From positions 1 through 64,000 of the IMG/VR virus record IMGVR_UViG_3300042876_000208: DNA of 64,000 bases; one strand, given 5' to 3'. Below the pieces are notes generated by a model. The model saw only the letters and a list, made by a program, of their open reading frames with translations. It did no database searches and was not told the origin of the DNA. The position numbers and the translations under genes were made by a program. Below, in pieces: positions 38 to 48,310 of the stretch (position 1 is its first letter; each line of letters starts with the position of its first letter). This stretch comes from a virus. Taxonomy: Duplodnaviria; Heunggongvirae; Uroviricota; Caudoviricetes.

Positions 38-592
38 TTATTCAGAATCGTCTAGACCATCATCACTATCATCATAAACTTCATAGGACTCAAGAATGTC
101 AGCGAACTCATTAAAAGTAAAATCATCGTGACCTCTGCCAAAGAGTTCTTTAAGAACCTGATATTGTTCATCAGTGAGTTCTTTTATTTTTAGAGAGCGT
201 CTGTAATCCTCATAACCACTATAGGTAAAACCCTCATTAGTGCCAAAGCCTACCTCAATATCTACACTGGAATAACGTGTCTTTTCTTCAACGTATTCAT
301 TCTCCGTCTTGGTAAAAACTTCATACCAATAATAGGATTTCTTTCTGGCTGTTTCCTTATCCTGATGGAAAAGATTCTTCCAATCCTCGGTGATAGAACC
401 AATCATCTGTCGATAGTGTTCCCTGGTCTTTTTATCAAGCTTTGCCTTATGTTCAGCTACAATTTTGTTACACAAATCCTCAGTCTTTGAAAGAAACCTA
501 TCCAAATCCTCCTTGGAAGGGAACACACGGAAACCTTCTACGTCAAATTCATCAGCGTAGTTATCATCAAATATTACTAATTGTGCTGGCAT
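38..592 (-). CDS. hypothetical protein with strongly acidic C-terminus (DDSDDGLDDSE)
   Basis: Uninterrupted 184-aa ORF co-oriented with neighbours; start overlaps stop of next ORF; no recognisable motif. Confidence 0.45.
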   Translation of the reverse strand: MPAQLVIFDDNYADEFDVEGFRVFPSKEDLDRFLSKTEDLCNKIVAEHKAKLDKKTREHYRQMIGSITEDWKNLFHQDKETARKKSYYWYEVFTKTENEYVEEKTRYSSVDIEVGFGTNEGFTYSGYEDYRRSLKIKELTDEQYQVLKELFGRGHDDFTFNEFADILESYEVYDDSDDGLDDSE

Positions 593-4122: not shown

Positions 4123-4407
4123 TTACTTTTTACACTTGCTATAGTACAGTTCCCACAACTCTTTCCGCGCCCTTTTGGAGGGAATTGTGGCAAGCAGTTT
4201 CTCAAACGCCTTGTGACGACCAACTGCTTTTTCAAAGCGGTCTTTGAAATGACAGGTCACGGAATACTTGGCGACCTCGCCGTTCACAGTATTGGTGGTG
4301 ACAAGGGTAGTAGTGCGCTTACCTTCATCATTGGTGTACTGGAAATTAAAGCCTACATTTACATACTCGAACAGATACTTTTCTTTCTTATCACTTTCTT
4401 CAGACAT
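4123..4407 (-). CDS. hypothetical protein
   Basis: 94-aa ORF, start abuts stop of 4407..5045. Confidence 0.4.
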   Translation of the reverse strand: MSEESDKKEKYLFEYVNVGFNFQYTNDEGKRTTTLVTTNTVNGEVAKYSVTCHFKDRFEKAVGRHKAFEKLLATIPSKRARKELWELYYSKCKK

Positions 4408-5045
4408 TAGTTACCTCCTTGTGGTGTTCCATTACGGAACTCAGAATGAAACCGTTCGCGGTAATTACGCCCGTTTGGGTCATACATTTTGTACACAGCT
4501 TCTTGTTCAGATGTTTCCGGCTTGGTGATGGTAGCCCAGTCGTCAAACACTATGCCAAATTCGTCCCAGGCATTGGTGCTAGTACCACCACCTTGTCCAA
4601 CATCTTCTCGCACACGGAACACACGGCGACCCACCGTTGAGCAGAGAGATACATACATTCTATTCTCTTTCATGCACAACTTATAGAGGGACTCCATGAC
4701 TTCACTAAGAGACACGTTCAATCCCACACCCTGGGCAATGCGCCACATATCTAAAGCTGAGCGGCGACGGTTGGATTCTGTTTGAGCTGATGCCCCGAGT
4801 TCATCCCCACTTTTCTTGGTGAAGGTGTTATAGGTACGAGTTAAACACAGAATCTCGTACAGAATATCCTCAAGAGAATTTCCTTCGAGTTTTGAACGTA
4901 ACTTGGTATCCACGCTGGGTGTGAAGTACAACGGCTCTACATCGTGGTTCTCTTCACAGATGTCCAAGAACAATGCAACACGCTTACCCTTATTCAGCAT
5001 CTTAAATCTCCTTCCATTTATCAAAGTCGAGGCCATATTCATCAC
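4407..5045 (-). CDS. hypothetical protein (paralog A of tandem pair)
   Basis: 212 aa; C-terminal region (RRSALDMWR...WDEFGIVFDDW) resembles 5002..5547 (KRSSLDLYR...EYGLDFDKW). Confidence 0.5.
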   Translation of the reverse strand: MMNMASTLINGRRFKMLNKGKRVALFLDICEENHDVEPLYFTPSVDTKLRSKLEGNSLEDILYEILCLTRTYNTFTKKSGDELGASAQTESNRRRSALDMWRIAQGVGLNVSLSEVMESLYKLCMKENRMYVSLCSTVGRRVFRVREDVGQGGGTSTNAWDEFGIVFDDWATITKPETSEQEAVYKMYDPNGRNYRERFHSEFRNGTPQGGN

Positions 5046-5547: not shown

Positions 5548-6160
5548 CTTGTGGGGTTGCTGGCATATCTATCGGGGTAGCGGCCTGTTCTATTGGGGCA
5601 TTGACGGGATTAACTCTAGGCACACGCAGAGTAGCCGCCTCAGTACCACGCTGTGCTATAAGTCTATTCAGTTCATTAATAACTTCTGCTCTTGGCTCAT
5701 CATCCAAATTCTCAAGCACTTGAAAATCTATACCCAGCATCTCGTGTGCCATTGCCATCCAACCTGGGCGAGTATCTTCAACAAATCTATTCGGTTGTGG
5801 GATGTTAATACGAGCATTAGCTCTATCAGCCTCATCAATATTGAAGTCATGAGCCACTTCAGTCCAAGTGGGATTTATGGTAGTTCCAACTGTGGTGTAA
5901 GTTGAGCCATATCCACCAGAGACCTTGACCTCTTTTTCAGCGACTTTCTTGGGCTTTGGAACGTATTCGCTGATTTCAACGGTGACCGTGACTTTCAGGT
6001 TAAAGGTATAGCCACAGAATGGACATGTGGTTTTACCATCATAGTTGCTCTGGTTGATGATATACATCTGGGTTTTGCACTTAGCACAAATCACCGTGGG
6101 CGTTTCAGAACCTGACTTTACACTAGACTTTATCAGTAACATTATTCCTCCTTTACCCAA
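5480..6160 (-). CDS. zinc-ribbon protein with Arg-rich/Asn-Gly-rich tail
   Basis: CAKCKTQ...CPFCGY zinc ribbon near N-terminus; C-terminus PRRRRATNGGTNGNTNG; last gene of the ligase operon. Confidence 0.45.
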   Translation of the reverse strand: MGKGGIMLLIKSSVKSGSETPTVICAKCKTQMYIINQSNYDGKTTCPFCGYTFNLKVTVTVEISEYVPKPKKVAEKEVKVSGGYGSTYTTVGTTINPTWTEVAHDFNIDEADRANARINIPQPNRFVEDTRPGWMAMAHEMLGIDFQVLENLDDEPRAEVINELNRLIAQRGTEAATLRVPRVNPVNAPIEQAATPIDMPATPQVGEARPRRRRATNGGTNGNTNG

Positions 6161-6747
6161 TCACAAACGTAGTCAAAGAACTTTTGTCCAGCGGTCATAG
6201 TAGAGAATTCAGGATGGAATTGCGTGGTCAAAATCCTGTTATCCCGACTATAGGCTAGCTCAACAATACGGCTCTCTGGCTCAATAGCAAATGGTTCAAG
6301 ATGCTTAGAAATTTCGTCCGCAGTGTAACCTTGATGGTGCATACTATTCACATTATCAGTATAAATTTGTTGCACTGGAGTTTTCTTTAGCCACACAACC
6401 TCATGGTGGCTTGCATGGCCTGGACGAATGTCTTGAACAAGACCACCACCCAAGAGTGCATTGATAAGCTGGTGACCACGACATACACCCAGCATCTTGA
6501 GTTTCAGCCTTTGAGCATGACGGAATACTTCAAGTTCTACAGCATCCCTTTCCACTTCAATTCCTCTTGCACCATGAAAATCCTGGTTGTATAAGCGAGG
6601 TGAAATGTCTGCCCCGCCCGGAAAGATGACCAAATCCAATCTTGGCAGGATAGCCAAGTTCTTTCCAATTACAACCAGATTAGGAAAGTAAGACTTAAAG
6701 TGAGCAAAGAATGGGACTGTGGCAATCCCTACTTTTAGTTCGTCCAT
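6142..6747 (-). CDS. class-I glutamine amidotransferase / peptidase C26 (gamma-glutamyl hydrolase-like)
   Basis: GVCRGHQ nucleophile-Cys motif, HHQ, and QFHPE His/Glu motif; 201 aa. Confidence 0.7.
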   Translation of the reverse strand: MDELKVGIATVPFFAHFKSYFPNLVVIGKNLAILPRLDLVIFPGGADISPRLYNQDFHGARGIEVERDAVELEVFRHAQRLKLKMLGVCRGHQLINALLGGGLVQDIRPGHASHHEVVWLKKTPVQQIYTDNVNSMHHQGYTADEISKHLEPFAIEPESRIVELAYSRDNRILTTQFHPEFSTMTAGQKFFDYVCDWVKEE

Positions 6748-11883: not shown

Positions 11884-13089
11884 TTAATGATACTGAAATT
11901 TTTTGATGGCACGTTCAATCTCATTGAAATTAGTACCCAGTCCCAAGGGGAATTGAATCTCCTTAGAATAGATACCAATTGGAATAACCGCGAACTTCTT
12001 TCGTTCTACCTCATCACGAACGGATTTTCTGCTACCAAGTCCACCGACAGCGTATTTCAAGAACAAGTCGATTTGCTTTTCTTCAAGACTCAAGAGAGGC
12101 TTGTTGAACAGAACAATGAATATAGCATCCATGTCTGCAACACTCAACCTCTCCCTCTCACGGAATTCAGCCACCCGAGTAATCTTTTGCCAAAGACCCT
12201 CCTGTGGACTAGTCCCCGAAGTATCCCCCGCGCCGTAACCAGTATTCCTCGTCGTCTGAGAGTTCACGGAGTGGACTTGTCCCTGACTGTATGACGTTTG
12301 ATACGTTTTTGCTGGTAAAGGGTTTTCGGGGCATTTCCCTACCTCCGTTAGAGTTAACCCATCGACTCTGTAGATGGTTTCCTTTTCGAGTTCTTTGACT
12401 TCCTTATCAAAGTCTATTTGAGGACTGCCGAGTAACTGGGCAATATTGGAAATGCTCAGTTGTTCATCGGATAGTGTGCCCTTTTCTGTATTGACGATAA
12501 ACCCATACGGAACTTTGTCCTTCGAGAGATGAACAATATGCAAATCGGCAGTACGTCCTCGACACACATAGAACTTGGACTCTCTGCGAACATAGATAAC
12601 CATTGCATACTTGCCCTTGCATCCGGCCATACAATTGTTGAAGGCGAGGACAAAATCCGGCTCGATTTTCAATTCCGCAGTGAGCATTTCAGCAAAGCGC
12701 TTGCTATCCGAGGGGCGGCTTTCTTCCGTTGTACTGGTTGTGGTGTTGGTATCCTTTAGCTCATCTTCAAACCAAAGAGTACCATTGTGAACGAGAACGA
12801 GTTCATCCGTCTGAAAGGGATGTACATTTTCCTCAGTTACCACAATATTCTTGCTTGCCCTGCGAACATGCGATACAATGGGATTTACCCCAAAGCCATA
12901 GTCGCTGATTAAACCACCAATGTCGCATAGTTCGCTGGCTGCGAATTTGGTTTTGAAGATACCTGACTTAGGTGAGAAAAACCCCCAACCATCCTTGTGC
13001 AGGTAGCGTGAATTCTTTGTTGCTGTTACAAGTAGTGCGGCTTTGTTAAACCGCTCAGACCGTGAGGCGATAAGTGTTATTTGGCACAT
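11884..13089 (-). CDS. class-II (Ntn) glutamine amidotransferase-like protein
   Basis: Begins Met-Cys (MCQITLIAS), the N-terminal nucleophile arrangement of GATase-II/Ntn hydrolases; 401 aa. Confidence 0.5.
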   Translation of the reverse strand: MCQITLIASRSERFNKAALLVTATKNSRYLHKDGWGFFSPKSGIFKTKFAASELCDIGGLISDYGFGVNPIVSHVRRASKNIVVTEENVHPFQTDELVLVHNGTLWFEDELKDTNTTTSTTEESRPSDSKRFAEMLTAELKIEPDFVLAFNNCMAGCKGKYAMVIYVRRESKFYVCRGRTADLHIVHLSKDKVPYGFIVNTEKGTLSDEQLSISNIAQLLGSPQIDFDKEVKELEKETIYRVDGLTLTEVGKCPENPLPAKTYQTSYSQGQVHSVNSQTTRNTGYGAGDTSGTSPQEGLWQKITRVAEFRERERLSVADMDAIFIVLFNKPLLSLEEKQIDLFLKYAVGGLGSRKSVRDEVERKKFAVIPIGIYSKEIQFPLGLGTNFNEIERAIKKFQYH

Positions 13090-13096
13090 ATTACTC

Positions 13097-14233
13097 CTAA
13101 CGATTGATTACGTGACTGAATTGGATATTGTGTACAGAGGCTTGGTGTGAGTCCAAGAAACCAGAATCTTTCAAATCTCTGGCATTTACCTTACGCCGGG
13201 GTTTATCATCCCCAGTATAGTAGAAATCTTCTTGGACATACTTATCCCAAAGGTGGGATTTTATCTCACCCTCTGGTAAGACAAATTTAGGCGCTGTACA
13301 TAAGAGTTCCCTTAGTAGGGTCTTGTACTTGGGCTGCATAGGATATGTATCAGAGAACTCATCCAAGAGTGCAAAGAGAACCTCAAGCAACTGACAATCA
13401 TCGTTGCTCTTGGTCACAGGTGCAAATGGCAGCTCTTCCAAGCGTCTCAATGGCACTTTGGTCAGCATTTCGGCTGTGCTTTGACACAGACGCATGTTAG
13501 CCAAGAACAACTGAGAGTTGACGGTGAAATTGAAATGTCTGAACTCTAATGTGCCGTGTAGTAAGATGCTCAGCAGGTTCACCCCAAAATAGCGCGATGG
13601 GTGATACCGCTTCGGTTCACGCTGACTTACACCATAAGCACGCCAGAATTCATCCACGGTTTCGGATGTTATCAGTTGCTCGTAAGAGAGTACCGGGCGA
13701 TAGTTTCCATCTTCACAACGAACAATCGGGGGCGCGGTGTGTGGTCTGCAATAAATAGCATTGTTGCTATCGCCTCTGAATGTATAGCCCATAGTCCCGA
13801 GCTGATACATGAGGCTTTCAAACTTAGCAGAGAATGTTACCGCCGATAGCAGGCTACCAAGTGAATGGGGGAAACCTACGTGGAAGTGAATGGCATTGCG
13901 AGTACCTTTCTCCAATTCACCTTCACGGTCTAGTTCACCAAGCAAGAGCGGAAAGATACGTTCAGCATCCCTAAAGTACATGGGTACTGAAATCAATTCA
14001 ACTCCCGTGGTGACTTGAGTTAAACTACGACCACTTTTAGTCAACAGATTGAAGGGGTCGATGAAATAGAGTTTGTCTGTAAGCCGCTTCAAAAAGGTTT
14101 CGGAGGATGCATCCCTATCCTTTTTAAACCAATCAAGTATCCCAAGAGTTCCTGCTCTCTCAACGAAGCGTGTGGGGATAACATTTGTGGTTTCTATTTC
14201 AGCGGCTACAGTATCAAGAATTAAACCTTGCAT
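13097..14233 (-). CDS. carboxylate-amine ligase (GCS2/COG2170 family amidoligase)
   Basis: 378 aa; AIHFHVGFP motif comparable to YbdK-type HVHVG; Glu/Arg-rich catalytic core. Confidence 0.45.
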   Translation of the reverse strand: MQGLILDTVAAEIETTNVIPTRFVERAGTLGILDWFKKDRDASSETFLKRLTDKLYFIDPFNLLTKSGRSLTQVTTGVELISVPMYFRDAERIFPLLLGELDREGELEKGTRNAIHFHVGFPHSLGSLLSAVTFSAKFESLMYQLGTMGYTFRGDSNNAIYCRPHTAPPIVRCEDGNYRPVLSYEQLITSETVDEFWRAYGVSQREPKRYHPSRYFGVNLLSILLHGTLEFRHFNFTVNSQLFLANMRLCQSTAEMLTKVPLRRLEELPFAPVTKSNDDCQLLEVLFALLDEFSDTYPMQPKYKTLLRELLCTAPKFVLPEGEIKSHLWDKYVQEDFYYTGDDKPRRKVNARDLKDSGFLDSHQASVHNIQFSHVINR

Positions 14234-14241
14234 AGTTTTTC

Positions 14242-14685
14242 CTAGAACTGGTAAACGTCATTGACAGAGTATACAAATCCAAGTTGAGTTTTATTCTCAC
14301 GGAAATTCTGGCAAAGACGCCAGATGGTTTCAATGAGGTTATTCTTAACCTGCTCTGCATTAGGAACTGAGTAGTGGCACATAATGTTATCCATGTTTCT
14401 ATCCAGTCCTTGAATATAGACCACGGTTCTATCCCCGAGCGCTGGGGTATTATTCACCTTGACCGTGCCTCCGGTGTCCTCGCAAGAGAACGTGAGTTCA
14501 TTAACACGGAGAGCGTCGTGTTGAGATAACACCCTGAAATAAATCACATCACGGTCAACACACATCATAAACGTAATGAGTGCTTCCGTCTCAGGGACAA
14601 TCGGTGGCTTTCCTACCGGGTATCGGAACATATTACCTCCTACGAGAACAAAGTAGTGAACTTCTTGATTGAATAAGCATCCCAC
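14242..14685 (-). CDS. hypothetical protein (true start probably internal Met)
   Basis: 147-aa ORF overlapping next gene by 46 nt; internal MFRYPVGK start likely. Confidence 0.35.
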   Translation of the reverse strand: MGCLFNQEVHYFVLVGGNMFRYPVGKPPIVPETEALITFMMCVDRDVIYFRVLSQHDALRVNELTFSCEDTGGTVKVNNTPALGDRTVVYIQGLDRNMDNIMCHYSVPNAEQVKNNLIETIWRLCQNFRENKTQLGFVYSVNDVYQF

Positions 14686-15245
14686 ATACGTTCAGGATGC
14701 CATTGAACTGCAAAGATATTTGCATCGACCGAGATGGCTTCAACAAGGCCTGACTCTTCAGAGTTAGCCTCAACCCTAACACCGTTACCTAAACGAGCAA
14801 TTCCCTGGTGGTGGAAAGAGTTTGTACGAAACACGCTCCTATCCCGTGTAGTAACACGGTGAACCAAATCAGTCTCGTGCTGAGAGTAGGGATGGTCAAC
14901 AAGGTCTTGACGCAGAGTTCCACCAAAGAACACATTCAACGCCTGCAACCCTCGACAAATCCCAAAGATTGGAAGCTTTGCTTCAACGAACAAAGGTAAA
15001 ACGTGGTCGTCAAAGTATTCCAGGTACGTGTTGGGTTTAGATGTTCGATACTCAGGCCATTGACCATACTTACCGGGATAAATATCTGCACCACCGGGAA
15101 GAACAATTCCGTACAAGAACTTGAGGGGTTCTTCCAAGGACGGGGTTACAATTACGGGTGTTCCAACCTGTTCAATCCAATACAGGTAGTTTGTGTGAAC
15201 ACCAAACACACCATCTGTTTCCGAGCCAGGAATTCCAATTCGCAT
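14640..15245 (-). CDS. class-I glutamine amidotransferase / peptidase C26 (second copy)
   Basis: GICRGLQ nucleophile motif, HHQ, WHPE; 201 aa; first gene of operon. Confidence 0.7.
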   Translation of the reverse strand: MRIGIPGSETDGVFGVHTNYLYWIEQVGTPVIVTPSLEEPLKFLYGIVLPGGADIYPGKYGQWPEYRTSKPNTYLEYFDDHVLPLFVEAKLPIFGICRGLQALNVFFGGTLRQDLVDHPYSQHETDLVHRVTTRDRSVFRTNSFHHQGIARLGNGVRVEANSEESGLVEAISVDANIFAVQWHPERMWDAYSIKKFTTLFS

Positions 15246-19819: not shown

Positions 19820-20431
19820 TTATTCCATACCATCCTGGTAGATGTCGTATGGATTTTCACCGAACACGTCGCTGGGCTTGACGGTGACAGGCATAACAAA
19901 GATAGAGATGAGGTCACCGCTGTTCAACATGACCGACACCGCGCTTTTGCCAGCCTCAACAAAGAGGGTATAGGCACGTGTGATGGCCTGCTTGAGCAAT
20001 GCGGGAACGCTGCTTGCCGGGACAACTTTCCATCCGTCACTTTCCAGGTATTGAACCAAGGCTGCCATATCTTTGTAGTTGGCAATCGTGCCACGCCCGA
20101 AGGTAGCTTTCAACCACCCGCTGATGGGGGTTTCAAACATAACTTCACCACCGGACTGAATGGCATTACGCATCATGGTGAAGCCAACACCACCGCCGGG
20201 TGTTCCCCATGCGAACAGGTAATTCTCACCATTGGTCAGGATGTAAGTACCCGTTCCACCCGTTACGGCCTGATTGAGCCAATACAGGGTAGTGCCGAGG
20301 TGAGCCGCGTAAACCTGGCCATCCGGAGGCAGGGGCGGGTTGATGGTCGCCGCAGATGGGTCGGGGGCGCAGGCGGCCAAAACGAGGGTCATGATTGTTA
20401 CAAACAACAGAGCGATACGAGCAAGTTTCAT
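19820..20431 (-). CDS. lipoprotein (signal peptidase II substrate), GC-rich island
   Basis: MKLARIALLFVTIMTLVLAAC lipobox; Gly/Thr-rich mature part; local GC visibly higher than flanks. Confidence 0.55.
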   Translation of the reverse strand: MKLARIALLFVTIMTLVLAACAPDPSAATINPPLPPDGQVYAAHLGTTLYWLNQAVTGGTGTYILTNGENYLFAWGTPGGGVGFTMMRNAIQSGGEVMFETPISGWLKATFGRGTIANYKDMAALVQYLESDGWKVVPASSVPALLKQAITRAYTLFVEAGKSAVSVMLNSGDLISIFVMPVTVKPSDVFGENPYDIYQDGME

Positions 20432-22042: not shown

Positions 22043-22074
22043 TTCAGTCTCCTTTTTGAATTGTATGAAACAGA

Positions 22075-22140
22075 AGCACCGATGGGATTTGAACCCATGC
22101 ACAGCGTATCCGCTTGCTCTACCAACTGAGCTACGGTGCT
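22075..22140 (-). other. tRNA-like element with truncated anticodon arm (66 nt)
   Basis: Perfect acceptor AGCACCG/CGGTGCT, canonical U8 and D-arm GCTCAGTTGGTAGAGC, canonical T-arm ATGGG-TTCAAAT-CCCAT, but only 16 nt (AGCG-GATA-CGCT-GTGC) where the anticodon arm plus variable loop (~22 nt) should be. Confidence 0.45.
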
Positions 22141-22694: not shown

Positions 22695-23615
22695 CTAGGG
22701 CTGGGGAACGGGCACGATGTTAGTGCCTGTGGTATTAAAGAACTGGGTCAAGTCGGTTCCTTCGGGGATGAAGTAAACCGTTCCTGTACCGAACATACGC
22801 TGGATGAGTTCCAGGCGCTTGAGTTCAAATGCCTGCGGGTTATCGGTGTAGACCTGCTGGGCGGCGGCAACTTTCTTGCCTTCACGCTGGGCGATTTCAA
22901 CATCAATAGCGGTTTGAGCTTTCTGCACGTCGAGCTGCTTTTCCAAGACGGTCTTGCTCTTTTCGGCCTGCAAGATGTCATTGGCAGCCTGTTGATTAAT
23001 CAACGACTGCCTTTGAACCTCAACTTCGGTATTGACACGCAGCAAGGCTTTGTCGTTCAAAGCTTTCATGTATTCAGCAGACGGGGCAACGTTTTCAATG
23101 GTCACATTGATGATTTCTGCAGAATATTTTTCAGAGTCTTGCTCAAGCTGGTCTTTGATGTTATTGGCCAGACCATTGCGGTCATCAAGCAACTTGTCCA
23201 GGGTGAATGAACGAACGCCATTCTTCATGCCCTCACGAGCGGTAGCGGCCACCGTGTTCACAAAGTTACCATCATCAGTCAATGTAGACCAATTCGTCAT
23301 CAAGTTCATGACGGAGTCCTTGTCGGACTTGCGGCGAGCCTGGATGGTCACTTTCAAGCCAATCGCCTGATTATCCGAGGTAAGCACCTCGGGGTCTTCA
23401 ACGCTGAACGTAAGTGCATCCACGTTGATGACCTTGATTTCAGCGAGAGCGCCACCGCTGTACATGCCTGGGCCAACCACGTTCACAATCTTGTTGGACT
23501 CCATTTGCACGGCCACCTGGTTCGGGTTAACGTCCGCGTTCCAGTAACAACCGCTGGTGATGAGGGTGAACAAAACGAGCAATACTGTCAAAAGCGATAA
23601 CTTACTGAATTTCAT
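22695..23615 (-). CDS. SPFH/band-7 (stomatin/prohibitin/HflKC-like) lipoprotein
   Basis: Lipobox LITSGC; central SPFH-like core followed by long Ala/Gln/Glu-rich coiled coil (QRQSLINQQAANDILQAEKSKTVLEKQLDVQKAQTAIDVEIAQREGKK); GC-rich. Confidence 0.6.
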   Translation of the reverse strand: MKFSKLSLLTVLLVLFTLITSGCYWNADVNPNQVAVQMESNKIVNVVGPGMYSGGALAEIKVINVDALTFSVEDPEVLTSDNQAIGLKVTIQARRKSDKDSVMNLMTNWSTLTDDGNFVNTVAATAREGMKNGVRSFTLDKLLDDRNGLANNIKDQLEQDSEKYSAEIINVTIENVAPSAEYMKALNDKALLRVNTEVEVQRQSLINQQAANDILQAEKSKTVLEKQLDVQKAQTAIDVEIAQREGKKVAAAQQVYTDNPQAFELKRLELIQRMFGTGTVYFIPEGTDLTQFFNTTGTNIVPVPQP

Positions 23616-23866: not shown

Positions 23867-23887
23867 ATGGCATAGACTATTGGGTGG

Positions 23888-24058
23888 TTCATTTAGTGCT
23901 CCTTCTTGTTTTTCTTGCTTTTGGATGCTTCAGCATCGTAATCCTCTAAGCTGGGTTTGGTAGTAGATTTACCACCAATTTTCTTGCCCTGCTCAAGAGC
24001 GGCCAATTCCTCAGCCGTGATGCCAATTACCTGCTTGTAGCGGTCGTTGCGAGTCTTG
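23888..24058 (-). CDS. small basic protein (about 56 aa)
   Basis: Hand-translated MHKTRNDRYKQVIGITAEELAALEQGKKIGGKSTT..., below ORF-track length cut-off. Confidence 0.3.
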
Positions 24059-24173
24059 TGCATGATAACCTTCTTATTTATTGTACATAATTACTGCAAT
24101 AATCAAGAACAAGATTACCAATCCAGCGTAATCTAGTTCAAGTTCAAACGGGCCAATTTTAATCCTGAACATT

Positions 24174-24335
24174 ACTTGCCCCGATTGATACGGCGGGAGG
24201 CCTTGGACTGCTTGCGAGCCTTTTTGCTCTGGCTCTTGTTCTTCTTGGTGATACCAATTGAAGAAATCTTAGTAACATGCTCTACTGGTTTGAGCGGGGT
24301 TTCTTCAAAGGTTTCTACGATTTTTTCGTTCATAA
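24174..24335 (-). CDS. small Lys/Arg-rich protein (about 53 aa)
   Basis: Hand-translated MNEKIVETFEETPLKPVEHVTKISSIGITKKNKSQSKKARKQSKASRRINRGK. Confidence 0.3.
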
Positions 24336-24356
24336 CGAGTCTCCTTGTATAAGATT

Positions 24357-24488
24357 AGGTCTATCAAAACTAATAGACCTTTAAAACTGAGCAAGCACTT
24401 GGCGTGTCCCGGCTTATAGCTCTGAACATCCTTTAATCTCTAGCGAACCGACTTACTCAGTTTTAAAGGACTACTAGATGTAGTCCTT
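24357..24488. ncRNA. structured element: three interlocking hairpins
   Basis: H1 aggtctat/atagacct (24357-24380), H2 long-range 18-bp cctttaaaactgagcaag / cttactcagttttaaagg (24378-24395 with 24452-24469), H3 aaggactac/gtagtcctt (24466-24488). Confidence 0.4.
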
Positions 24489-24496
24489 CCCATGCT

Positions 24497-24604
24497 TTAC
24501 AAATAAAGTGGAACGGGTGTTGGCTGGCCGTTGGCATTGGCAATAGCGGCTGCAATGAGTACAATCACAAGCAAAATCATCATAATCCAGAACGGGTTAG
24601 GCAT
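24497..24604 (-). CDS. small hydrophobic peptide (about 35 aa)
   Basis: Hand-translated MPNPFWIMMILLVIVLIAAAIANANGQPTPVPLYL. Confidence 0.3.
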   Translation of the reverse strand: MPNPFWIMMILLVIVLIAAAIANANGQPTPVPLYL

Positions 24605-24698
24605 GTTATCCTCCTTTTTTATGGAATGATGTAGGCTAGAAATGCACCTACTGCTGAGATTACAAAAAGCAATTCAAAGAACAGGGAAAGGGACATTT

Positions 24699-25010
24699 TT
24701 ATACTCCTACGGTTAAAGATTGGGCGAGCAATTCGATACTCACTCCACTATCAGACATTAAATAAATCTTGTAGCGGTCTCCAATTTGTTCAACGGATAC
24801 CATATCGCATCCTGCCTCAAATTCAGCATCCGTACCATCGAAGTACAAGTAAACAATGATGGGTTCATCAGTCTTGCGGGGTTCAATCACAAGGGCAAAC
24901 TGACGGTCACTAAATAAGCCAGCGTTCCTCGGGTGTGCATATTTCTTGAGAACGCTGGAAAGATAAACGCCATCCTCGGCTGTGAGTTTTTCAACAAAGA
25001 GTGATTTCAT
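24699..25010 (-). CDS. hypothetical protein
   Basis: 103-aa ORF. Confidence 0.4.
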   Translation of the reverse strand: MKSLFVEKLTAEDGVYLSSVLKKYAHPRNAGLFSDRQFALVIEPRKTDEPIIVYLYFDGTDAEFEAGCDMVSVEQIGDRYKIYLMSDSGVSIELLAQSLTVGV

Positions 25011-25348: not shown

Positions 25349-25368
25349 TCTCCTTTTGGATAATAATA

Positions 25369-25390
25369 AACCCGCCTTTTGGCGGGTTTT
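25369..25390. terminator. intrinsic terminator-like hairpin
   Basis: aaacccgcc-tttt-ggcgggttt, 9-bp GC-rich stem flanked by A/T runs on both sides. Confidence 0.55.
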
Positions 25391-26631: not shown

Positions 26632-26765
26632 AATGTCGTGCCCAATTCATATTGAACTTGTAACTCCGAAGGAAAGCAAATTGTTTGTTCTTCATAATCT
26701 TATCCTTTTGTCAGTTGGTTACACATAACCGTACTCGAATTACTTCAAATACGGATGGTGTGTCA

Positions 26766-27179: not shown

Positions 27180-27254
27180 ATTTTTATCCTTTTTTGAATT
27201 TGAAGTTCGAAGTTAAAATGTAATCGCACGGGCATGTATAACCACCCGCCCCTA

Positions 27255-27264
27255 TAGTATAGCA
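27255..27264 (-). promoter_or_regulatory. extended -10 promoter (TGcTATACT) for leftward early operon
   Basis: Minus strand reads GTGCTATACT, identical to the box in the rightward promoter 570 bp away. Confidence 0.45.
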
Positions 27265-27807
27265 CGAAAAAATTGGCCGAACACAACAAATTTTGACCAA
27301 TTTGTTTCCGAAAACGACATAAAATGATGAAAAAATTGTAGGAAAATGACATTTTCGATAGGCGATATTAGGCGAAATATGCCCAAATCTGCGGAGGAAG
27401 GCATAGTAGAAGGTAATAGAAGAGTAAGTGGTATATACCAATATAGGAATATAAGCGGGAGAAAATATAAACACGTAGACTAATTATTATAAGGTAAACA
27501 TATAAATGAACCATTATATGCGATAACATAGAACACTAATAATAGAATATATTCAGAAACGTCAAAAAATATTCTTGTGTAAATAGTGCTAAGAGTAAAT
27601 ATATAGGGAAATATTAGAAGATGTGTAAAAAGAGAGGGCTGTATAGAACAAACACATACTCTTATATGACTGATTTACTTCGATAAGAATTTTTCCCCAG
27701 AATTTAGTTGAGCAAATGTTTTTGAGCAGTTCCTGTTCGCGTTTCAGTACATATTTGAATATGGTGTACAGAAAGCTAAGTTCGGAGTTTGGGTTTTGCT
27801 AGGGTAC

Positions 27808-27836
27808 TTGCATATGCTTACATGTCGTGCTATACT
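27808..27836 (+). promoter_or_regulatory. sigma70-like promoter: TTGCAT, 17 bp spacer, TGcTATACT
   Basis: -35 at 27808-13, spacer 17 nt, extended -10 TGc + TATACT at 27831-36, about 60 nt upstream of ATG 27898. Confidence 0.5.
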
Positions 27837-27848
27837 AAGCTAAGGTTA

Positions 27849-27866
27849 CATGTTCGCGTGAACATG
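27849..27866. promoter_or_regulatory. palindromic operator candidate CATGTTCgcgtGAACATG
   Basis: 7-bp inverted repeat immediately downstream of the -10; the half-site core GTTCGCGT recurs at 27735-27742. Confidence 0.45.
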
Positions 27867-27897
27867 ACCTAGGGTTCTTACCCGGAAAGGTTATACA

Positions 27898-44737: not shown

Positions 44738-44797
44738 TAATAAACAAAAAGGGACTGTAAAATAAGCTTATCTAGAAACTAGAAAGATATAATACAG
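44738..44797 (-). terminator. terminator hairpin after major tail protein gene
   Basis: aaagggactgta ... tacagtcccttt (12-bp stem, long loop with inner tctag/ctaga hairpin); U-rich on minus transcript. Confidence 0.5.
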
Positions 44798-44846
44798 TCC
44801 CTTTTGTCTTACTCCTTGAATTACCGACTTAAACTAAATTGTAATT

Positions 44847-46559: not shown

Positions 46560-47160
46560 TCATAAGCTATAGCAGCATCAACTTCCTTAGCAAATCTTCC
46601 TAGATAGATTCTTTTTTTTTTAATATATTAAGTTGACTTTCCCATTGTCCAGTAGCTTTGAAAAAACAGACCCCAAAATATTTTGAAGTCGCATTTTTAT
46701 TCTTTTTTCCAAAAGCCCCGCACTCTGTATTTATTTTTCCCAAATGAGAAAGTGACATTTTTAGTTTTTCTTCTTTAGTATGCTTTCTACCGGTATTTTT
46801 TATGGATAGTTTAATTCTAGTTTCTTTAGAAACTTTTCTATTTAAGTTTCCTTCACCACCCATGGTAAGATTAAATCCAGTATTAAAAGTATTTAATTTT
46901 TGTATCCAAAATCTTTCTCTACGGCTTAACAATGAGTTTTCACATTGCTCTAGTATATAGAAGTTAAATTCTGCAATGCCGTATTTATTCCAAGAATTTT
47001 GAAGATATTTATTTTGATGACGATTTTGATTTAAGCATATAATATGACGATTCCATCGTTTTTGTATATTTATACTTTTTCCAACATATTTTTTATCAGT
47101 AATCTTGTTTTCTATGCAATAGATTCCAGATATTTTCTCTGAGGACATAGCCATATTATT
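46560..47160 (-). mobile_element. free-standing homing endonuclease gene insertion
   Basis: Selfish HEG between tail genes, lower GC than flanks. Confidence 0.5.
46600..47154 (-). CDS. GIY-YIG homing endonuclease (I-TevI/Seg-like)
   Basis: GIYCIENKITDKKYVGKS...KRWNRH...ERFWIQKLNT...GFN matches the GIY-YIG catalytic module; AT-rich; interrupts the tail gene array. Confidence 0.75.
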   Translation of the reverse strand: MAMSSEKISGIYCIENKITDKKYVGKSINIQKRWNRHIICLNQNRHQNKYLQNSWNKYGIAEFNFYILEQCENSLLSRRERFWIQKLNTFNTGFNLTMGGEGNLNRKVSKETRIKLSIKNTGRKHTKEEKLKMSLSHLGKINTECGAFGKKNKNATSKYFGVCFFKATGQWESQLNILKKKESI

Positions 47161-48310
47161 TTACTCCAGCAACAGCTCTTTTAAGTTTATTAACATAGAT
47201 TCTAAATCTATATCCATTGTTCATTGTTAATTCAACTCTACCTTCTTTAGTAACCTTTGAATTAATAACTTTCCCAAATTCCTCAATATCAAACACGATA
47301 CTGGCAAATTTTGGGCTATGTGTAAAGACGGCAGGTAGACCGTAAGCTTTTGCTACATCGACTACCTTTTGTTGCAATCTTTCTATTCTTTTAAGACCGG
47401 GTTCAAAAATAACAGGCAAATCATCTCCTTCGGTTAGTTCATTTTCTAACTCTGAGATTCTAGCCTCTAGATAATTCTTTAAGTCCAATAGATTATTGTG
47501 CGTAGAAAGTATCCTATTTCTAAAAATCATATAATCTTCTCTGGCACTTTTTAATGAATTTCTAAAAGTAAATTCTAATTCATCTTGGGTTCTTTCTACA
47601 AAAAAAGTAGGTCTATTTACTGGATATGGAAAACCACCCCTGTCTGACGACATACTGGTAAAATTTCCATTATTAAGTAATTTCCAAAATGGGGCAACCC
47701 CACCGGATAGACCTAGACGTTCATCAATTGTATATTTCCACAAGTCTGCGGAAACAAACCTCTTTCCTTTTTTCCCTACGGCGTTACTATGTTTAAAAAT
47801 AGAATCTCGCCAAATAGCTGAAGCTTGAATAGGGTCTTTTGTTTTGTTCCAATTATTTAAATTACGAGCTTCGGATACCGCTCTTGCCCACGAATCTAGA
47901 GTTCCTGCGGAAGAATCCAAATCTACGGTAGCTTTAATCGTGGAATTCCAACCCGCTCGATTTACTTTTATTTCGATTGGAGCATTTCTACAAGCTAATA
48001 AAAGTAAATCTCTTAGGGGTTGTCTACTATATTCCTCAGAAGAATCGGCTGCATCTGTTGCATTTGAGACTAGCGAATTAGTTGCATTTTCTTTTATAAT
48101 TATAGAGAGTTGAAATAAAATATTTGCTAAATATTCTGGTTCATAGGTTGCATTTACCAAATATTCCATATTAGATAGTGCTTTAGTTAATTCATCCACA
48201 ATTTCTTGTAAAGTGCTAATCTTAGCAAGAATACTGTTTAAATCATTCTCAGCCTTTTCTGCATCACTCTTTAATTGTTTAAAGATGTTCTCAAATTCAT
48301 CAATAGCCAT
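47156..48310 (-). CDS. hypothetical structural protein
   Basis: 384 aa, N-terminal coiled coil. Confidence 0.4.
   Translation of the reverse strand: MAIDEFENIFKQLKSDAEKAENDLNSILAKISTLQEIVDELTKALSNMEYLVNATYEPEYLANILFQLSIIIKENATNSLVSNATDAADSSEEYSRQPLRDLLLLACRNAPIEIKVNRAGWNSTIKATVDLDSSAGTLDSWARAVSEARNLNNWNKTKDPIQASAIWRDSIFKHSNAVGKKGKRFVSADLWKYTIDERLGLSGGVAPFWKLLNNGNFTSMSSDRGGFPYPVNRPTFFVERTQDELEFTFRNSLKSAREDYMIFRNRILSTHNNLLDLKNYLEARISELENELTEGDDLPVIFEPGLKRIERLQQKVVDVAKAYGLPAVFTHSPKFASIVFDIEEFGKVINSKVTKEGRVELTMNNGYRFRIYVNKLKRAVAGVK

Follow-up and report, generated by a model that had tools for sequence, protein, structure and literature searches.

A three-helix spacer between micro-genes of an uncultivated tailed phage and its possible role in punctuating polycistronic mRNA

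The early and late mRNAs of phage T7 reportedly contain a series of RNase III processing sites, R0.3 to R18.5, described by Dunn and Studier in 1983. The T7 products retain a 3' hairpin that stabilises the upstream message, and several T7 sites directly follow a promoter. In phage lambda, the N leader carries nutL and, ahead of the gene for the small basic N protein, a hairpin sensitive to RNase III. Correia- and ERIC-type miniature inverted repeats and REPIN/BIME doublets form multi-copy families on host chromosomes and have target-site duplications, and Correia elements are cut by RNase III. In this study, we analysed an RNA element in a DNA stretch of 64,000 nucleotides (nt) (positions 1 to 64,000 of IMG/VR record IMGVR_UViG_3300042876_000208; hereafter, the window), which comes from an uncultivated tailed phage of about 93 kb. 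The element fills the spacer between two genes for very small proteins (micro-genes). Like the T7 sites, it consists of intercistronic, same-strand, non-terminating hairpins between phage genes, with a helix of about two turns. Another described system is the promoter-early stem-loop (PeSL) cassettes of T4-like phages, which occur in many conserved copies per genome, carry a strong sigma-70 promoter and have stem-loops that are effective terminators (PMC2839356, PMC4122927).

The element is a genuine, probably selected and lineage-specific structured spacer of a known general kind, that of intercistronic processing or regulatory cassettes. It looks selected because the same design is found with a different sequence in two relatives. 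As to its function, we propose, at a probability of about 0.35, that it is a sense-mRNA intercistronic punctuation module in which an RNase III-type helix is combined with end-protecting hairpins. Of the four roles put forward initially, that of a putative RNase III site remains the strongest.

The element begins 9 nt after the stop codon of an upstream gene for a 35-amino-acid (aa) hydrophobic peptide and ends 9 nt before the Shine-Dalgarno (SD) sequence AAGGAG of a gene for a 53-aa basic protein, within a run of same-strand micro-genes that are otherwise 0-15 nt apart. Every gene flanking the element is on the minus strand, and the relevant RNA is therefore the reverse complement of the sequence given in an initial annotation of the window, in which the letters were correct but were those of the plus strand. 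That annotation had also placed the element in a stretch free of open reading frames (ORFs) at 23870-24700. The gap proved to be only 24334-24496 (163 nt), and the wider stretch is full of micro-ORFs with good SD sites. The micro-ORFs adjoining the spacer have strong ribosome-binding sites, and the gene calls were made independently on identical contigs. Two Logan assemblies, independent of each other and 93.5 and 56.5 kb long, contain the region, and the element sequence is identical in both.

Direct reading of the sequence bore out the three-hairpin structure that had been described. In the sense RNA, a 5' hairpin (HP1), a long helix around a central insert and a 3' hairpin (HP3) abut with zero linkers, and adjacent helices overlap by 2-4 nt as originally stated. 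On plus-strand DNA, HP1 reads AGGACTAC-TAGAT-GTAGTCCT and HP3 reads AGGTCTAT-N8-ATAGACCT. The HP3 stem comprises 8 Watson-Crick base pairs (bp) and lengthens to 10 bp if two G.U pairs of the minus-strand RNA are counted. Of the 18 positions in the long helix, all but one are Watson-Crick pairs; at the exception, the minus-strand RNA has G.U and the plus strand has C.A. The central insert had the 56 nt reported for it, but the term GC-rich overstated its composition, as its G+C content of 50% is only moderately above that of the window (39%) and of the local sequence (42%). HP1 and HP3 resemble one another, and both are A+U-rich and weak, with just 3-4 G-C pairs in their stems.

A repeat finder showed that the inverted repeat of the long helix continues into the inner arms of both hairpins (26 nt, 88% complementarity). 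Thus, the same RNA can form either three helices or one extended hairpin, and each half of the element is an inverted 'hairpin plus TTTAAAACTGAGYAAG' module, in which a GGWCTAY...RTAGWCC hairpin is followed by TTTAAAACTGAGYAAG. In the extended form, the 5' arm of HP3 pairs with the 3' arm of HP1 and the long helix reaches about 25 bp with one U.U mismatch. The three-helix state was predicted to be favoured over this extended hairpin by about 7 kcal/mol.

The fold is stronger than expected for its composition and is biased towards the sense strand. The minimum free energy (MFE) of the spacer was -54.0 kcal/mol on the sense strand, with a z-score of -4.33 and 0/200 shuffles equal to it, and -43.7 kcal/mol on the antisense strand, with a z-score of -3.46. 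In a sliding scan of the entire stretch on both strands, the element ranked about 9th among 6,400 windows, and the arm of the long helix occurs twice in the 64 kb against 0.10 expected. All three wobble pairs of the element are G.U on the sense RNA. The sense strand is favoured in two of three phages, with energies of -50.9 (sense) and -40.8 (antisense) for the element in the window and -54.4 and -43.6 for that in the relative L014 described below.

Conservation of the base-pairing in related phages had been proposed initially as a check on the structure. A gene of the SPFH/band-7 family lies 0.7 kb downstream of the element, and about 200 SPFH homologues were found, many on contigs of 70-100 kb. 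A loose sub-clade comprises the window, P0004 (75%), P0005 (68%) and P0006 (61%), while all others show 50-59% identity. Two contigs, L008 and L014, are the sole members of the closest SPFH sub-clade with upstream DNA. In each, an element precedes the shared gene of the SPFH (membrane-scaffold) family by 0.9-1.7 kb, and these elements are among the most strongly structured spots upstream of it. The three phages share one architecture, in which a hairpin, a helix of 16-18 bp and a second hairpin follow each other without linkers and extend from stop codon to SD in the SPFH neighbourhood, in all three cases 0.9-1.7 kb upstream of that gene. The L008 element folds at -61.2 kcal/mol with z-scores of -8.1 to -10.1, and that of L014 gave z-scores of -7.7 to -8.8. 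As in the window, the inverted repeat enters the hairpin arms, over 26 nt at 92% in L008 and 27 nt at 85% in L014.

The L008 and L014 elements are homologous to each other, and their first loop is identical over 15 nt, CTGGTAAAATAAACC (CUGGUAAAAUAAACC). Between the two, 8/27 stem pairs are altered on both sides and 96% of cells remain paired, compared with 30-41% paired and 0-1 compensated pairs in slid controls. Five of the eight compensated pairs are explicable as one symmetric 2-nt indel, and the helix is kept regardless. In every one of the phages, the 5' portion of HP3 varies together with the 5' arm of HP1, which indicates that the alternative pairing is also kept, with G.U pairs on the sense strand. 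The conservation check therefore supported the three-helix design, with compensatory changes between L008 and L014, but its support for the window sequence is indirect. A background scan for the architecture in 1.03 Mb of unrelated viral loci gave two loose matches; this control is rough, since the first two detectors depended on definition and yielded no clean rate. The one match that was checked lies inside a gene and is missing the strong flanking hairpins. The nested-palindrome design is unusual. In the relatives it forms a small homologous family with covariation, and the pair from L008 and L014 is a candidate for a new family of RNAs or cassettes. As the sample consists of three elements from one sub-clade, the scope is narrow and the finding modest.

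We base the proposal of a punctuation module on the recurrent 16-18-bp helix (extendable to 25-28 bp), the flanking hairpins, the lack of a terminator tail, the exposed SD and the sense-biased fold. We infer transcription through the region, cleavage and stabilisation of the products by hairpins. A polycistronic early minus-strand mRNA would be punctuated between two gene cassettes. During its synthesis HP1 would fold first, the 18-bp helix next and HP3 last. Host RNase III, a double-strand-specific endonuclease, would then cut the long helix in its 18-bp form or in its extended form of about 25 bp. The upstream message would terminate in HP1 and so be shielded from 3' exonucleases, and the downstream message would open with HP3, which lies 9 nt before the exposed SD and could act as a 5' stabiliser. 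A helix of about two turns on the transcribed strand is the criterion for an RNase III site, and the element has 18 bp, or about 25 bp when extended. The ideal E. coli RNase III substrate has 22 bp, many cellular substrates have about 20 bp or less, and RNase III products bear 3' hairpins that are stability determinants (PMC3867540).

The first loop of L008 and L014 also contains TGGTAAAAT, an extended -10-like motif (TGgTAAAAT). By sequence it is a good extended -10, and the early region of the window has TGCTATACT; both are putative promoters. A promoter in the TGGTAAAAT loop would initiate RNA inside HP1, and the extended hairpin would be forced at the new 5' end, an arrangement reminiscent of T7, where promoters and RNase III sites are paired, and of the PeSL cassettes (PMC2839356, PMC4122927). 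A promoter scan of the sense strand of the window element found no sigma-70-like site and no TGnTAWAAT.

Several observations weigh against the punctuation module. A helix of 18 bp is at the short end for RNase III. The L008 element is near-symmetric by strand, at -60.3 (sense) and -64.4 (antisense), and its slightly better antisense fold leaves room for a DNA-level palindrome. The identical L008/L014 loop hints at sequence-specific recognition or a promoter, which the proposal leaves unexplained, and the window element is without this 15-nt loop. MAFFT could not align the window element with those of L008 and L014. A covariance model (R1) built from L008 and L014 scored 136 and 118 bits on its own members and gave no match on 24334-24496 at E up to 10. 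As the window element has no detectable sequence homologue, covariation backs the class and not the window sequence itself. Finally, no comparable element was found in the more distant relatives L009, L010, L125, L126, L128 and L129. Of two related searches in IMG/VR, an SPFH-alignment scan returned one distant locus, without the element, and the 15-nt loop gave 109 matches, none in a hairpin.

The surroundings of the three elements suggest that the spacer can move relative to its genes. Conservation between the L008 and L014 elements extends from stop codon to SD, but the genes on either side are not homologous. In L008, a basic 79-aa gene and a 63-aa gene flank the element. Its neighbours in L014 are an upstream gene for a 26-aa membrane peptide, analogous to the 35-aa gene of the window, and an unrelated 75-aa gene, a homologue of which is located 0.8 kb further on in L008. 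The 53-aa basic protein of the window and the 79-aa protein of L008 are 46% identical (E 4e-9). In the window, the gene for this basic protein follows the element; in L008, it immediately precedes the element and has a plain leader of its own, 11 nt long. This changed order and the short leader argue against a dedicated riboregulator of the basic protein, a role that had been suggested initially and is now weakened, and favour a self-contained movable spacer unit. The initial suggestion of a structured small RNA has likewise lost ground, because the central insert measures 56 nt in the window, 29 nt in L008 and 9 nt in L014 and is conserved in neither length nor sequence. By SPFH, L008 and L014 are more distant from each other yet share the element, and the window is nearest to L008. 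From this pattern the window element is most likely a replacement of the same design and not a diverged orthologue. Judged from the sequences, this arrangement suggests that such spacers serve as portable linkers between ORFan cassettes, which is compatible with an RNA role.

Proteins of the basic family have a variable acidic head and an invariant tail, GIT(R/K)KNKSQSKKARKxSKxSRRINRGK (window 24172-24333, minus strand; L008:4058-4297). Only three further relatives were found in 1.84 billion representatives and none in IMG/VR; only four relatives are known, and no Pfam or PHROG family was assigned.

It is somewhat unlikely that the element acts primarily as DNA, namely as a portable palindromic linker or miniature mobile element, with or without an RNA role, in which a 35-39-nt inverted duplication of 'hairpin plus tail' around a variable centre marks the junctions at which ORFan cassettes are exchanged. 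Such an origin would account for the left and right modules being inverted copies, for the homologous L008 and L014 elements between non-homologous genes, for the basic gene on opposite sides of the element in the window and L008, and for the other sequence in the window despite its SPFH being nearest to L008, a pattern that points to replacement; a precedent exists in the PeSL cassettes of T4-like phages (PMC2839356, PMC4122927). However, the compensatory changes and the sense-strand G.U pairs argue for a folded single strand. Neither arm, tail nor hairpin motif has a second copy in the window plus 10 kb more (74 kb of the same phage), and there is a single L008-type copy in 12.9 kb. Exact terminal-repeat and module patterns gave only chance matches, and no copy, in IMG/VR, GTDB (one genome per species) and JGI metagenome contigs, in scans that demand exact matches and may let diverged copies escape. 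No target-site duplication was found, as the element flanks ...CATGGGA and AATCTTA... (sense strand) share no direct repeat, and the two assemblies showed no excision or inversion variant. An invertible segment was considered and rejected, since the 56-bp spacer is too short and both assemblies are identical. A quite unlikely variant combines mobility with mRNA processing: the elements would be an undescribed class of bistable nested-palindrome cassettes in a clade of uncultivated phages of about 93 kb, each with three abutting helices able to refold to a 25-28-bp hairpin, exchangeable at ORFan junctions and used as a landing or recombination point for micro-genes. They would then correspond to PeSLs or integron attC sites, but as single copies defined by structure; by eye, the attC core sites GTTRRRY / RYYYAAC are absent from the window element.

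Termination is an unlikely function, although HP1 starts 9 nt after a stop codon. At the cassette boundary, stacked hairpins could cause RNA polymerase to pause or stop, or allow a termination factor to load, making the element a non-canonical terminator, attenuator or insulator; the basic protein, the membrane peptides and SPFH would then rely on read-through or antitermination. Other gaps of the operon also have terminator-like hairpins, at 26729-26754 and 25368-25389, and the small-gene region of L008 holds two tandem canonical intrinsic terminators (L008:5455-5590, z-score -6.6) in the gap just upstream of its membrane-peptide and SPFH genes. Against this, the window, L008 and L014 elements all lack a U-tract. 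In the window, the tails after HP1 and HP3 read UUUAAAAC and UAAUCUUAU, respectively, both hairpins are weak and rich in A+U, and a terminator scan made no call within 24334-24496. The same phage uses canonical hairpin-plus-U-run terminators elsewhere (25368-25389 and 44747-44805). The initial view that the structure is too elaborate for a simple terminator thus held. A neutral inverted duplication without selected function, arising in a rapidly evolving ORFan region through, for example, template switching at a hairpin, is improbable. It would fit a unique window element with no homologue, an unconserved centre and a highly plastic region, but the two nearest relatives share the unusual design, which compensatory changes maintain there, exactly abutting helices are unlikely to arise by drift, and the rough scan of unrelated viral loci yielded just its two loose matches. 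Still more doubtful is a protein-binding regulatory RNA, a nut-like antitermination site or translational operator comparable to lambda nutL and the RNase III hairpin ahead of N, recognised by the adjacent basic protein. The 53-aa protein with its Arg/Lys-rich tail adjoins the window element and its homologue adjoins the L008 element, the two flanking hairpins are alike, and the L008/L014 loop is strictly conserved. On the other hand, the window and L008 have opposite gene orders, the L014 element is flanked by the membrane peptide and the unrelated 75-aa protein, and the basic protein has no family assignment. Multi-operon antitermination would require repeated sites, but neither HP1 nor HP3 has a second copy in the 74 kb. 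The 3' arm TGCTCAGTTTTAAA bears a loose resemblance to boxA and is absent from L008 and L014. The remotest explanation is a signal that acts as a hairpin in single-stranded DNA, such as a replication origin. As DNA the element folds just as well, and that of L008 is strand-symmetric, but there are no iterons and no AT-rich unwinding region at the element, it is sited between micro-genes within an operon, and it is absent from more distant relatives that share replication genes. Nothing emerged in support of the origin-like role first suggested. No IHF site was seen by eye in the central insert.

Table 1. Positions of the spacer, its structural parts and neighbouring genes in the window, and of the elements in the two relatives.
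Feature	Positions	Strand	Details
Whole intergenic spacer, 163 nt	24334..24496	-	From 35-aa stop codon to 53-aa start codon; filled by the element
HP1, 5' hairpin of sense RNA	24467..24487	-	AGGACUAC-AUCUA-GUAGUCCU; 8 bp, 5-nt loop; pair probabilities at least 0.95
Long helix, 5' arm (sense)	24452..24469	-	Plus strand CTTACTCAGTTTTAAAGG
Long helix, 3' arm (sense)	24378..24395	-	Plus strand CCTTTAAAACTGAGCAAG
Central insert, 56 nt	24396..24451	-	Predicted fold: two small hairpins
HP3, 3' hairpin of sense RNA	24357..24380	-	AGGUCUAUUA-GUUU-UGAUAGACCU; 10 bp including two G.U
SD AAGGAG of 53-aa gene	24342..24347	-	Left free by predicted structure
Downstream 53-aa basic-protein gene	24172..24333	-	ATG at 24333
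Upstream 35-aa hydrophobic micro-gene	24497..24604	-	Strong SD; stop codon 24497-24499
SPFH/band-7 lipoprotein gene	22695-23615		0.7 kb downstream of window element
L008 element	4303-4418		Hairpin GGGCACACGA-loop-UCGUGUGCCC, perfect 16-bp helix around 29 nt, hairpin GGGCG-CAUGA-CGCCC, SD
L014 element	87-190		Same design, 9-nt centre; MFE structure is the extended 28-bp form

The minus strand of the window encodes the terminase, the portal, the tail fibre and a GH25 endolysin of this phage. Downstream of the endolysin is a plus-strand pair of short genes, then a non-coding stretch, and then the minus-strand operon, which runs toward lower coordinates and is composed mostly of tiny ORFans. The non-coding stretch of 700 nt (27180-27897) divides the plus-strand 138-aa gene from the micro-gene operon, carries the TGCTATACT extended -10-like site near 27255-27265 and is likely the early control region of this operon. 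The best sigma-70-like match of the region was on the antisense strand, at 24537-24565 (+) (TTGGCA-17-TACAAT, 10/12). It aims into the 35-aa and 25-aa hydrophobic micro-genes and could be the promoter of an antisense RNA like those of type I toxin-antitoxin pairs. The immediate-neighbour proteins of 103 aa and 294 aa had 0 relatives among 5.8 billion sequences and none in IMG/VR, and no DNA match was found among INPHARED phages and PLSDB plasmids. A further 10 kb of the same phage (L132) holds a second, convergent arm with genes for ribonucleotide reductase, primase and dCMP deaminase, five tRNAs and a TROVE/Ro60-like gene.

Known RNA families were searched with Rfam 15. At gathering thresholds, the whole window gave two tRNAs only, and at E up to 10, the sole match on 24250-24600 was MIR2646, with 13.5 bits against a threshold of 245. 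L008 gave generic miRNA-hairpin matches only, all sub-threshold. A tRNA-like or Y-RNA-like reading of GGUUCG and UAGCUC in the insert was rejected, as Rfam and ARAGORN were blank and the centre is unconserved. One Rfam tRNA call in the window (22074-22140, minus strand, 53 bits) was missed by ARAGORN; a tRNA located 0.5-1 kb or more downstream of the SPFH gene is also present in L008, L014, L015, L129 and L125. The 8-mer ATAGACCT/AGGTCTAT has 10 copies in the window against 2.2 expected. It was dropped as a hairpin motif shared with other sites, because outside the element and a pair near 47.6 kb all copies are coding.

Other structured or clustered features were noted in the window and its relatives. 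At 47580-47780 (minus strand), about 90 structured nt lie within a long-range helix UAGGUCUAU ... AUAGACCUA, and a U7 run comes after it; this structure sits inside a 384-aa ORF (47156-48310) and could be an internal terminator, an intron-like insert or a sign of a mis-called ORF. L132:19915-20060 (minus strand) has a tRNA-3'-end-like stretch, GUGGGUUCAAUUCCC, and a 15-bp stem (19953-19967 with 20004-20018) directly upstream of the 472-aa TROVE/Ro60-like (DUF2828/DUF7788) gene. It is a possible Y-RNA-like partner; this region had no Rfam match and an unremarkable fold z-score. A distant SPFH-carrying IMG/VR contig (L125:883-1235) contains tandem GCATTCGA(A/G)TTC repeats and then a 42-nt inverted repeat, 81% complementary with arms 32 nt apart, and looks origin-like by its sequence. 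Two class-I glutamine amidotransferases (peptidase C26), an amidoligase and a GATase-like protein are encoded at 6142-6747, 11884-14233 and 14640-15245 of the window. This cluster is conserved downstream of SPFH in relatives and may be a DNA or metabolite modification module.

If the element is a punctuation module, a long early transcript from one strand would be split into separately stable messages without terminators, the punctuating spacer would be swappable or replaceable with its shape kept, and RNA processing would be tied to modular shuffling of ORFans. The RNA of about 130 nt is a small, testable subject for work on RNase III and message stability, and the L008/L014 motif with its covariation could seed a new RNA family.

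Compared with described systems, the element has parts of several. Intrinsic terminators, including tandem ones, likewise place a hairpin directly after a stop codon, but the element has no U-run, its stems are A+U-rich and the scan was negative. Correia, ERIC and REPIN elements are also units of 100-150 bp with long terminal inverted repeats that form long hairpins when co-transcribed, and one hairpin of the element has GTAG/CTAC as in REP sequences; unlike them, it showed no multiple copies and no target-site duplications in the scans made. Like the lambda N leader, the element is a structured leader in an early operon that stops shortly before the SD of a small and very basic protein. It differs from the N leader in showing no clear boxA/boxB organisation and in its unconserved link to the basic gene, whose leader in L008 is 11 nt. 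PeSL cassettes differ in copy number, as the element has one copy per sampled stretch (the window and the L008 locus), and also in that the window element has no promoter, no terminator tail and a nested palindrome. They share with it a spacer of about 100 bp from stop codon to SD between ORFans, a hyperplastic region and a stable stem-loop, and, with the L008/L014 element, conservation between unrelated flanking genes. The T7 sites have no sequence relationship to the element, whose cleavage is only proposed. They are single bipartite hairpins with an internal loop, whereas here three helices abut and the long one surrounds a variable insert. The placement of T7 sites directly after a promoter has a parallel in L008 and L014, whose first loop holds the extended -10-like motif.

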